Positions 56,506 through 58,445 of a DNA stretch of 58,445 bases are shown here, in pieces; the first letter of the stretch is position 1; each line of letters starts with the position of its first letter. Source of the stretch: a virus. The stretch lies in UHGV virus genome UHGV-0021275, one strand, 5' to 3'. Position numbers and translations under genes: made by a program. A model generated the notes under the pieces. It saw only the letters and a program-made list of their open reading frames with translations. It was not told the DNA's origin and ran no database searches.

Positions 56506-58445
56506 ATGACTGATAAAAATCTTTTCGGGTCGGGTGTGTTTAATTACATGAATCCGATGACGACAACGGTATCACAGGATTTGTTTGCACAGCCACAGAC
56601 GGACCGTTCATTGTATCGTTCGCCGTCACGTGCAGACTTACAGGCCCGTGCTGCTGCAGAAGAAGCTGCGTTGCTTAATGGCATTACGCAACAGTTTCAG
56701 GGACTGATGGCTACGCCTGAGTGGCAGAACGCCTCATTGCAGCGTCGCAATGAGATATATGATGCGATTATCAAAGACCAGTTTACGCCGTTTGTTCAGC
56801 AGCATATGGATAACCCGGACCTTATGATGAAGCTGCAGATGATACCGGAGGCGACGCTGAAAGCCGATATCAATGCGCTGTCAAAACAGATTGATGATGC
56901 GAACGAGCTTGGTGATTTATGGCGCGGTATGAAGTCCGGTGTTCACCAGTTGTCGTCAGGCATCGCGGATGGCATTCCGTCTTTGTTAGCGGCAGATCGG
57001 GTACGCACACTAGAAGAGCTTCAACAACGATATGGCTATAGCCAGGAACGACAGAACGCTATAGATGCCGCCAGACAGACACTACGGGAACAGGAAACCG
57101 ATCGGCAGGATACTCTGAAAGCTGTGCAGGAGTTACAGGGGCAACAGTCAATTGCCCGACGCAATACTGAGACACGACGCAGGGAGTTGCAGGGTGAGAA
57201 TGGTGAGTTCCTGGGTACGCTTAGCTGGGCAGCTGAGAACCCGCTGGATGCGTTGTCGTTCGCGGCTGAACAGGCACCGACAATGATTCCAACGGCAGCG
57301 GCAACCATCGGCGGCACGATGCTGGCAGGACCTGTAGGGGGTGCGGCGGCAGCAGCGGCAGTCGGAGGTCTGTTCTCTGCGGCGGATGCGATGGGTAGCG
57401 CAGGGCTTGACCTGTCACAGCAGTCAATGGATGACTTCCGTAAGATGCCGGAATTTCAGGCGCTGACCGCACAAGGTATTTCCGAAGGCGATGCACGTAA
57501 TCAGGTAATTGCTGCTGCACAGGGTGACGCAGGTGCGAAGGGTCTGGTTATTGGTGCGCTGACCAGTGTATTTGGGCCGGAGCGTATACTCGGTGGTGCG
57601 ATTGGTAAGACAATCACAGGAGCCACCGCACGTAGCATTGCAAACGGCACAATGAAAAAAGAGCTGTTACGCGGCGCAGCTACAACGCTTGCAGGTGCGG
57701 GAATGGAAGGTGTCGAAGAAGGCGCGACACAGTGGGCATCTAACTCCGCGATTAATAAGGCGACAGGGCTTAATAATGATGTATGGGATGGCGTCGCGGA
57801 AGCCGCTGCCCTGGGTATGATAGCCGGTGGTCCAATGAGTGCTGTTGGTGGCGGTGTCGACACGTACCATAATATTAAGGGCATTCGTGAGGCCCGTGCG
57901 GAAGCTGCGGCGCGTGGTGAGACGGACCTGACGACACATCGTGACGTTCCGTCACCGGAAGCTGCACATGCAGCAGAGCAGGGAAATACGGTAGACGCCG
58001 CTACAGCCGTTGACCCACTGGTAGCCCGGACAGCACTTAATACTGTTCGTAATGACCTGTTACAGCATACCGGTACGGCATTGACGACAGCGGAACGAGA
58101 TAGCTTGTACGCTACGGCTTATGCTGCGGAACAGGCTGGTATGACAACAAAGGCACTTCAAAGCCTGATGGAAAAGCTACAGGTACGCAGAGCATCACCA
58201 GATGGTAATGACCTGTGGAGTGGTTATCAGGAGTATGTGAGCAAACAGCCTGTGCGTAATGCGCAGGATAATGTCCTGGCAGAAGTGCCGGCTGATATGA
58301 CGGCTACGCGACCGTCCTGGGTAGGTGCTGAGTCAATGGAACATGTGGCACCGTTAGCACAAGCTATGATGGCCGCATACCGACGCGATTCCGTTGCGCC
58401 GCAGACTGAGTATACGCCGATGTACCGCGAACCGTTTGATGCGAC
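56506..58445 (+). CDS. Giant virion-associated protein, 5' portion (3' end runs off window; not in ORF track)
   Basis: Hand-translated from ATG 56506 (MTDKNLFGSGVFNYMNPMTT...) with no stop through 58445: 646 codons plus 2 nt. Contains Ala/Gly-rich segments (GGAAAAAAVGGLFSAADAMG). In phase with ORF 2-4963 if the sequence is circular. Confidence 0.65.
   Translation, partial: MTDKNLFGSGVFNYMNPMTTTVSQDLFAQPQTDRSLYRSPSRADLQARAAAEEAALLNGITQQFQGLMATPEWQNASLQRRNEIYDAIIKDQFTPFVQQHMDNPDLMMKLQMIPEATLKADINALSKQIDDANELGDLWRGMKSGVHQLSSGIADGIPSLLAADRVRTLEELQQRYGYSQERQNAIDAARQTLREQETDRQDTLKAVQELQGQQSIARRNTETRRRELQGENGEFLGTLSWAAENPLDALSFAAEQAPTMIPTAAATIGGTMLAGPVGGAAAAAAVGGLFSAADAMGSAGLDLSQQSMDDFRKMPEFQALTAQGISEGDARNQVIAAAQGDAGAKGLVIGALTSVFGPERILGGAIGKTITGATARSIANGTMKKELLRGAATTLAGAGMEGVEEGATQWASNSAINKATGLNNDVWDGVAEAAALGMIAGGPMSAVGGGVDTYHNIKGIREARAEAAARGETDLTTHRDVPSPEAAHAAEQGNTVDAATAVDPLVARTALNTVRNDLLQHTGTALTTAERDSLYATAYAAEQAGMTTKALQSLMEKLQVRRASPDGNDLWSGYQEYVSKQPVRNAQDNVLAEVPADMTATRPSWVGAESMEHVAPLAQAMMAAYRRDSVAPQTEYTPMYREPFDA

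Follow-up and report, generated by a model that had tools for sequence, protein, structure and literature searches.

A split gene for a giant, probably ejected polyvalent protein joins the two ends of the circular phage genome assembly UHGV-0021275

The virus genome UHGV-0021275, a stretch of 58,445 nt analyzed here as one strand (the window throughout this text), ends inside one long coding sequence and begins inside another. An open reading frame (ORF) absent from the program-made ORF list starts at ATG 56506 and runs to the last base, while the listed ORF 2..4963 enters from the first base on the same strand. This raises three questions: whether the two are halves of one gene, why the sequence is cut there, and what kind of protein such a gene would encode. 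A sequence-only reading had joined the halves into a gene of about 2300 codons within a complete, circularly permuted genome. We found that the two window ends are halves of one real gene and close into a circle. The explanation that we consider likely as a whole is that the window is a collapsed-repeat assembly of a circular ~58.7-kb phage, whose split gene encodes a giant polyvalent/ejection protein.

On the plus strand, the frame of ATG 56506 contained no stop up to base 58445, giving 646 codons and two left-over nucleotides (AC), and the nearest in-frame stop on its 5′ side was a TGA at 56485. Base 1 of the window (T) completes the codon ACT and the frame carries on as the listed ORF 2..4963, the “GTG start” of which is the first possible start that the ORF lister met past the window edge. 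Concatenation of 56506..58445 with 1..4963 gave 6903 nt, i.e., 2300 codons with a single stop at the end, and the remaining two frames over the junction were full of stops. Both the unlisted ORF and its agreement in phase with the left-hand ORF, as the sequence-only reading had described them, were thereby confirmed. The two parts of the gene are as follows.

56506..58445, plus strand: 5′ part of the giant gene, codons 1-646 and 2 nt of codon 647
1..4963, plus strand: 3′ part of the giant gene, the last nt of codon 647, codons 648-2300 and the stop

Since agreement in phase has by itself a 1-in-3 chance, the decisive evidence was taken from outside sequences. A search with the joined product returned 32 close homologues of 2300-2444 aa with end-to-end cover, and at least 11 homologue clusters were exactly 2300 aa long, at 95-97% identity over 100% of the joined product. 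These close homologues came from Escherichia coli assemblies and metagenomes, including gut metagenomes, and in many of the 58-62 kb contigs the intact gene stands mid-contig with the same neighbors; the longest contigs of the 32 clusters measured 58-62 kb or less (maximum, 61.8 kb). In one of them (locus L006, Logan SRR21291490, ~96% nucleotide identity) the 2300-codon gene lies in the middle of a 58,588-bp contig, and the alignment passes without a gap from window base 58445 straight into window base 1. The homologues also share the N-terminus MTDKNLFG with the product of ATG 56506, and the GC skew is unbroken over the 58445/1 junction. The flanks are the same in the window, in L006 and in L001, a contig piece described below: a 228-aa ORF upstream, and 138- and 196-aa ORFs, two holins and a lysozyme downstream. 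The intact 2300-aa homologues and the gap-free L006 contig bear out the proposal that the halves are one gene. That the sequence is circular is likewise upheld, by the contiguity of L006 across the junction and by two assemblies, identical to the window, that close to a circle.

These two assemblies also bear on the place of the cut. Contig k141_2098256 (ENA ERZ27287159, 58,808 bp), compared as three pieces, showed 100.000% identity to more than 51 kb of the window, the one difference being an insert of 222 nt where the window ends meet. Its first piece (L001) consists of window 45815-58445 and window 1-7834, each 100.000% identical, with the 222 extra nt between them; the other two pieces (L016 and L017) correspond at 100% identity to window 8018-22381 and window 28324-49814, respectively. 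The insert (12632-12853 of L001) is a tandem duplication of a 222-bp unit of 74 codons, and the giant gene in L001 has 2374 codons. As 222 equals 3 × 74, the frame is kept with either one or two copies. The copies in L001 share an 85-nt identical core (gene nt 1933-2017), and the window junction, between gene nt 1940 and 1941, lies inside it. Left of the junction, the window agrees with copy 1 at 4 of the 4 sites at which the L001 copies differ, and on the start side it matches copy 2 (GG at gene nt 2018-2019). The window thus holds one hybrid repeat unit, distributed over its two ends.

58331..58445, plus strand: first 115 nt of the hybrid repeat unit, copy-1-like; its last 8 nt (58438-58445) open the 85-nt core
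1..107, plus strand: remaining 107 nt of the hybrid repeat unit, copy-2-like; bases 1-77 are the last 77 nt of the core

Both assemblies gave the same circle size. In k141_2098256, position 325 corresponds to window 7834 and position 58808 to window 8018; from these coordinates, positions 1-141 repeat positions 58668-58808, which gives a circle of 58,667 bp (58,445 + 222). The 141-nt end overlap looks like a k = 141 overlap, and this contig was opened at window ~8.0-8.2 kb, in the toxin-antitoxin region and not in the giant gene. The second assembly, scaffold_852 (ENA ERZ28614492, 58,722 bp), is made up of 200 nt, the whole window and window 1-77, at 100% identity. It ends exactly at window base 77 and its ends overlap by 55 nt within the repeat core, so that the circle is again 58,667 bp. 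The window therefore falls 222 nt short of two assemblies that are otherwise 100% identical to it, and the earlier description of it as a complete genome is probably wrong.

The last 77-mer to fit within the 85-nt core begins at window base 1. A k = 77 de Bruijn unitig would start at this base, and trimming of the end overlap would leave the observed last base, while the probability that an arbitrary opening point falls within the core is ~85/58,445. Because the ends fall in the core at the k = 77 offset, we place the break at the repeat: the window is probably an assembly broken at, and probably collapsing, the 222-bp tandem duplication. Accordingly, it probably lacks one repeat unit, and the giant gene in this genome probably has 2374 codons. 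The cut point, which had been ascribed to circular permutation, finds its explanation in the repeat core; the split gene is real, but the cut in it would be an artefact of assembly at an internal tandem repeat.

Several points weigh against this. The collapse is deduced and not observed, the 141-nt overlap of k141_2098256 was obtained from coordinates by arithmetic, and single-copy, 2300-codon genes occur mid-contig in lineages with ~96% identity. Furthermore, recombination between the copies would yield exactly the hybrid copy seen in the window. The window could then be a true single-copy variant, with a gene of exactly 2300 codons: unequal crossing-over gives the observed copy-1 head and copy-2 tail, and at least one of the 11 or more homologue clusters of exactly 2300 aa was called mid-contig. 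We regard such a variant as rather unlikely, as contig ends lying in the core at the k = 77 offset would have to be a matter of chance, and the only genomes found with 100% identity to the rest of the window both have two copies.

The repeat unit corresponds to aa 609-682 (residue numbers here and below follow the 2300-aa form). It is one of the best conserved patches of an otherwise variable N-terminal half: against a lineage with 58% overall identity, it showed 82% (aa 601-640) and 60% (aa 641-680). The unit is duplicated in the 2374- and 2377-aa variants, and its copy number varies among close relatives.

As regards the genome that carries the gene, it is a circular ~58.7-kb podovirus-like phage from E. 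coli or the gut. Its plus-strand arm, from ~35 kb through 58.4 kb to 7.6 kb, is a virion operon followed by a lysis cassette. The order of genes is large terminase, portal, major capsid protein and an SU10-type (podovirus) adaptor, then later virion genes, i.e., a match to the PHROG family “internal virion protein,” virion structural proteins, a glycoside hydrolase family 104 (GH104) gene, the giant gene and the lysis cassette. The giant gene is thus the last of the virion operon, directly before the lysis cassette, and the largest gene of the genome. The minus-strand arm encodes a family-A DNA polymerase, a DUF927 primase-helicase, an SNF2-type helicase, a PD-(D/E)XK nuclease, an exonuclease, a ParB-like protein (phrog_1033, E = 7.7e-51), ArdA and a HigB/HigA pair. 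No integrase appeared in any Pfam listing of the genome proteins, no ParA, Rep or repressor was recognized among them, and the window contained no tRNA genes.

The phage reference set does not include this lineage. Megablast with the junction region yielded no match in 50,697 phage records, tblastn with the N-terminal 646 aa found none among phages, and a 22-kb megablast query had none in 5,426 complete RefSeq E. coli genomes. Close relatives were found as contigs of 50-62 kb in several E. coli isolate assemblies (e.g., GCA_009762015.1) and never within longer contigs; among 188 blocks, the number of contigs above 200 kb was zero. The sole deposited relative was pSTEC648_2 (CP061838.1), recorded for an E. 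coli isolate as a “non-mobilizable plasmid,” circular and closed, of 60,552 bp. The two are collinear over 73.6% of the window, at ~67-84% nucleotide identity and with the same gene order, and pSTEC648_2 has a 2318-aa orthologue of the giant protein with GH104 before it and the lysis cassette after it, as well as ParB, the DUF927 primase-helicase, a toxin-antitoxin pair and ArdA; it is likewise without integrase. Nevertheless, it represents a separate lineage, as the giant proteins are only 58-59% identical, and almost all of its genes are annotated as hypothetical. We found no paper that mentions pSTEC648_2 or CP061838.

With these data the mode of packaging can be considered. A complete, circularly permuted genome packaged by a headful mechanism and opened in its largest gene by chance would agree with the closure of the sequence into a circle and with a weak terminase match to phage Mx8 (39.5% identity over the N-terminal 46%); Mx8 is a pac-type phage. 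Yet such chance opening would have had to hit the 85-nt core, at the exact k = 77 offset, and would leave the 222-bp deficit with respect to the two otherwise identical assemblies. Short direct terminal repeats or a circular episome can also give rise to a circular assembly, and pSTEC648_2, the relative, is itself a circular plasmid. Since a circular assembly is equally expected from an episome, the closure lends no support to headful packaging. No deposited phage terminase shares more than 33.5% identity with the large terminase, a divergence too great for the enzyme to be typed by packaging mode. Taken together, we hold headful packaging as the origin of the window ends to be unlikely.

The genome combines a full virion operon and lysis cassette with a ParB-like protein and HigB/HigA, and an integrase was not found, traits that are those of phage-plasmids. 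From this gene content and from the 50-62 kb contigs of the relatives, a plasmid-prophage lifestyle is probably the best reading. A virulent or carrier-state phage, in which circularity would reflect replication or packaging intermediates and the biology of the giant protein would be the same, is somewhat improbable in our judgment. It would be in keeping with the phage's own family-A DNA polymerase, primase-helicase and nucleases and with the failure to identify ParA, Rep or a repressor, and ParB-like proteins occur in lytic phages too. However, the record of the relative is that of a closed circular plasmid from an E. coli isolate, relatives in such isolates form 50-62 kb contigs and are never part of longer ones, and HigB/HigA, ParB, ArdA and an RNA similar to AgrB are present together where integrase was not found.

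The sequence-only reading had argued from size that the protein is of the tape-measure or the ejection kind. Of these, the ejection kind gained support from an LPD38 domain and from homology to the N-terminal domain (NTD) of the N4 virion RNA polymerase (vRNAP), and the tape measure was contradicted by gene context. We consider a tape measure protein hardly credible: size is the only point in its favor, the adaptor is of the SU10 podovirus type, and no tail tube, sheath, chaperone or tape-measure match was found within the virion module. The gene itself follows the tail genes and stands between the virion lytic transglycosylase and the lysis cassette, and its LPD38, YkuD-like and N4-NTD-like domains, together with its structural relatives, belong to polyvalent proteins. 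Judged by its domains, the product of the giant gene is a phage-type polyvalent protein as predicted from sequence, and probably an ejection protein.

Such proteins were defined by Iyer et al. (2017; PMC5512222), who proposed that they are carried in the phage head and injected together with the DNA, often with domains that attack peptidoglycan; LPD38 was described in the same work as phage-specific and restricted to phage-type polyvalent proteins. The domain set and context of the giant protein place it among them. It is a very large chain encoded among late genes and contains LPD38, as do the proteins of Bcep22/JC1 (gp69) and the Ralstonia “DarB-like” proteins; it also shares with them the combination of a constant C-terminal module with variable enzymatic domains in front of it, and a domain predicted to attack peptidoglycan. 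The methylase-helicase dyad and the processing metallopeptidase of those proteins are, in contrast, absent from it. One enzymatic domain (YkuD-like) was detected in the giant protein, while relatives with the same module carry ART-PolyVal, ddrB-ParB, LT_GEWL, RelA/SpoT or methylase domains. As in podovirus ejection or internal virion proteins (T7 gp16, N4 gp50-52, phi24B gp47), segments likely to insert into membranes are present, as judged from the homology to the lipid-binding NTD of N4 gp50 and from the hydrophobic stretches at aa 268-295 and 1950-1968.

The most widely shared part of the protein is its C-terminal module.

2183..4960, plus strand: conserved C-terminal module (aa ~1375-2300, ~930 aa), mostly α-helical
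3908-3964, plus strand: hydrophobic helix in the C-terminal module (aa 1950-1968)
4001-4480, plus strand: Pfam LPD38 (PF18857; aa 1981-2140), 59.9 bits vs. a cut-off of 27

Word-indexed searches, with the module alone or with a 6-sequence profile, returned one protein each, and an exhaustive HMMER search was used instead. It yielded 1138 cluster representatives at E ≤ 1e-3, including 247 at E ≤ 1e-30. In nearly all of the best 150 of the 1138 matches the module occupies the extreme C-terminus, in proteins of 1100-6434 aa. Among 20 distant relatives, LPD38 was detected in 19, YkuD in 8, and ART-PolyVal and ddrB-ParB in one each. AlphaFold2 with a 58-sequence alignment modeled the module with a predicted local distance difference test score (pLDDT) of 86 and a predicted template modeling score (pTM) of 0.85, while an AlphaFold run with 10 sequences gave a pLDDT of 49 and was unusable. 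The model matched 62 predicted viral structures in BFVD, with template modeling scores up to 0.69; the named ones are mostly annotated as large polyvalent proteins, some of them with LT_GEWL, RelA/SpoT or methylase domains. No structural relative of the module was found in the PDB, and neither hhalign nor hmmsearch related it to the C-terminal domain of N4 gp50.

The closest relative from a cultured phage was Pasteurella phage Pmp11 (OR544128.1), with 33.5% identity in the terminase and 24-27% in the C-terminal module. Positions 25867-32838 of that record (L021), right after the portal gene, are listed as a “misc_feature similar to hypothetical protein.” This feature, 6972 nt long and extending as far as the 32.8-kb record does, is another unannotated giant gene at a record boundary.

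The N-terminal half and the linker that follows it contain three segments of note.

57268..57390, plus strand: Gly/Ala-rich hydrophobic stretch (aa 255-295; hydropathy peak 1.4-1.6), candidate membrane-inserting segment
57373..57831, plus strand: segment homologous to the N4 vRNAP NTD (aa 290-442), by hhalign vs. N4 gp50
8..430, plus strand: low-complexity Gly/Thr/Ala/Ser linker (aa ~650-790; G + A + S + T 50-64%)

A 13-sequence N-terminal profile aligned aa 290-442 with aa 298-433 of N4 gp50 in hhalign (probability 97.4%, E = 1.1e-11). In N4 gp50, membrane-spanning helices are predicted at 224-278, just ahead of the aligned segment, and the N-terminal domain inserts into nanodiscs (PMC13434306). 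The hydrophobic stretch of the giant protein stands directly before the N4-NTD-like segment, in a place equivalent to these helices. With respect to PHROG 2206, “virion RNA polymerase,” aa 136-556 gave a match (E = 3.1e-11) that covers only positions 100-529 of the 3406 in the profile. An N4-type virion RNA polymerase was rejected on account of this partial match and of the lack of any Pfam polymerase domain. The comparison with N4 is thus one between giant proteins, ejected in the case of N4, that share an NTD segment after a hydrophobic stretch, with low-complexity linkers here suggesting a beads-on-a-string layout; the giant protein differs in having no RNA polymerase domain and a C-terminal module unrelated to the C-terminal domain of N4.

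Beyond the linker, aa ~800-850 form a small β-rich element. Three homologues of 2416-2444 aa (P0008, P0017, P0019) have an insertion of ~138 aa at aa ~795, which repeats the β-rich element (GVGDTVTWKD...) together with a helical segment; such repetition indicates that the middle of the protein evolves by cassette insertion. When tblastn was performed with aa 648-2300, it matched ~25 records of Stx2-converting and Escherichia phages. These matches were gone with aa 1330-1913 or aa 1914-2300 alone, which confines the shared segment to aa 648-1329 (linker, β-rich element or YkuD-like domain).

The only enzymatic domain detected lies in this central region, behind a segment of hydrophobic character.

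1172..1258, plus strand: hydrophobic segment with an AHA|AT signal-peptidase-like motif (aa 1038-1066), as read from sequence
1346..1729, plus strand: YkuD-like (L,D-transpeptidase fold) domain (aa 1096-1223), with His1173 at 1577-1579 and Cys1202 at 1664-1666

The hydrophobic segment directly precedes the YkuD-like domain, and a distant homologue (P0034) has the same layout; we infer from this arrangement that aa 1038-1066 may have a signal-like function. The YkuD-like domain was matched by Pfam PF03734 (25.3 bits vs. a cut-off of 23.4, marginal) and by phrog_38499 (E = 3.9e-20), and PF03734 was found also in the 8 YkuD-positive distant relatives (8 of 20), with a best E of 1.4e-7. Cys1202, in the motif SLGCINVP, is the only cysteine in 2300 aa. 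Together with His1173, three Arg and one Asn it is invariant across 14 diverse homologues, and the domain is the most conserved region between lineages (82-90% vs. 58% overall). While neither the whole protein nor the YkuD-like segment matched any PDB sequence in phmmer, a 14-sequence profile gave Csd6 of Helicobacter pylori (4xzz) as the best, albeit weak, match (E = 0.01). Alignment of the profile with a canonical-looking L,D-transpeptidase sequence paired the His and GC motifs (hhalign probability 90%); as this template does not come from a database, the result was given no weight.

Csd6 is an L,D-carboxypeptidase (PMC4599014). YkuD-fold hydrolytic editors include the L,D-carboxypeptidases Csd6/Pgp2, DpaA, which detaches Braun's lipoprotein (Lpp), and the type VI secretion effector Tlde1a. 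These enzymes have the His/Cys YkuD motif and are precedents for a delivered, wall-acting enzyme of this fold. The similarity is nonetheless weak and partial, and the giant protein has GCIN and a long His-Cys spacing.

From these data we propose the following course of events. The capsid would hold a few copies of the giant protein, which at infection would be expelled through the short tail as a chain of flexibly joined domains, like “beads on a string.” The N4-NTD-like region with its Gly/Ala-rich hydrophobic stretch would insert into the host envelope, and the YkuD-like cysteine enzyme would act locally in the periplasm on stem peptides or on the Lpp-peptidoglycan link, complementing the glycan-cutting GH104 enzyme encoded just upstream. 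The LPD38 C-terminal module may serve as a class-wide chassis for incorporation into the capsid, as an envelope-spanning conduit, or both. Gene continuity, circular closure, the junction repeat, domain homologies and genomic context were directly shown; from them we infer that the protein is packaged in the virion, ejected and enzymatically active, and what its C-terminal module does.

A number of observations count against this proposal. Virion location and ejection are predicted from homology and gene order, and the role of the C-terminal module is a guess, as the module has no solved or functionally characterized relative. The YkuD match is marginal, lying just over the Pfam cut-off. The motif of the domain reads GCIN instead of the usual GCIR, and its His1173-Cys1202 spacing of 29 residues is unusually long; canonical YkuD enzymes have a shorter one. 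The domain could be either a hydrolase or a transpeptidase, and its catalytic competence is putative.

The best experimental analogue is gp47 of phage phi24B, a 2811-aa protein with LPD5, LPD1 and LPD38 and an MuF-C metallopeptidase domain, which is abundant in virions, invisible by cryo-EM (cryogenic electron microscopy) and proposed to be an ejection protein, with the peptidase proposed to open the cell wall (bioRxiv 10.64898/2026.04.10.717836). In both cases an E. coli podovirus of ~58-60 kb encodes a giant LPD38 protein together with its virion genes, and for both a capsid-packed protein that forms a trans-periplasmic conduit and carries a peptidoglycan-directed enzyme domain is proposed. 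In place of the metallopeptidase, however, the protein studied here has the YkuD-like cysteine enzyme; LPD5 and LPD1 were not detected in it, and tblastn matched Stx phages only outside the C-terminal module. Presence in the virion was confirmed by proteomics for gp47, whereas the giant protein is known from sequence alone.

Giant polyvalent and ejection proteins have thus been known before. Mildly new are the YkuD-fold domain, an apparently undescribed lineage of E. coli phages or phage-plasmids, and a widespread C-terminal module with a confidently predicted fold and no solved relative. A YkuD or L,D-transpeptidase-fold domain goes unmentioned in the main text of the polyvalent protein survey (PMC5512222). 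With dozens of contigs from isolates and metagenomes, the phage adds a well-populated E. coli and gut lineage to those with giant polyvalent ejection proteins. It also raises two questions, namely what part a YkuD-fold enzyme has in phage entry and what part the LPD38 C-terminal module has. As a tentative proposal, which we put forward as a possibility and do not favor outright, the genome may belong to an undescribed family of E. coli podovirus-type phage-plasmids whose ejected giant protein delivers an L,D-transpeptidase-fold enzyme to the periplasm, on a C-terminal chassis without solved relative, and there perhaps detaches Braun's lipoprotein or trims stem peptides. If true, a YkuD-fold enzyme at the site of entry would represent a chemistry of wall breaching that is so far undocumented in phage entry.

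The neighbors of the giant gene are as follows.

55815..56501, plus strand: GH104/lambda-R-type lytic transglycosylase, 228 aa (phrog_17230 “tail fiber protein/lysozyme,” E = 1.4e-51; phrog_90 endolysin)
4960..7594, plus strand: downstream neighbors at the end of the late arm, i.e., 138- and 196-aa ORFs, two holins, a lysozyme and a 174-aa ORF

The giant gene starts 4 nt past the stop of the GH104 gene, the orthologue of which in pSTEC648_2 is annotated as “glycoside hydrolase family 104 protein.” Pfam Phage_holin_8, Phage_holin_3_7 and Phage_lysozyme were found on the identical genes of L001 and L006. The genome accordingly has two separate muralytic genes, GH104 in the virion operon (55815-56501, plus strand) and a GH24-type (glycoside hydrolase family 24) lysozyme in the holin cassette (6595-7104, plus strand), which suggests that one enzyme is for entry and the other for lysis.

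In the space that separates the lysis cassette from the HigA-like/HigB-like pair (7690-8302, minus strand), a match to Rfam AgrB (RF02891) was detected at 7595-7680 on the minus strand (48.1 bits vs. a gathering score of 40). AgrB is the antisense RNA of the dinQ-agrAB type I toxin-antitoxin locus, and the AgrB-like RNA may be a second addiction module on the element.

The region 33300-34900 is poor in ORFs, and gene orientation and GC skew switch there. No Rfam family was found in the 33.3-35.0 kb intergenic region. It contains at least 10 copies of TTGAGCA/TGCTCAA in both orientations, several copies of TGCGCA-N-TGCGCAG and an AT-rich palindrome at 33987-34032. This pattern resembles iterons with an unwinding element, and the region is a candidate origin, partition site or operator array.

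Two further genes of the early arm were observed. A 282-aa ORF (30851-31699, minus strand) matched the YdcK β-solenoid repeat (Pfam E = 4.8e-17) and has 18-nt and 72-nt tandem DNA repeats at 31034-31480; the early arm of pSTEC648_2 has a gene annotated by PGAP as “polymer-forming cytoskeletal protein,” which may be the orthologue. The second encodes the ArdA antirestriction protein (31871-32617, minus strand; Pfam E = 2.5e-32), an anti-defense function apart from the giant protein.

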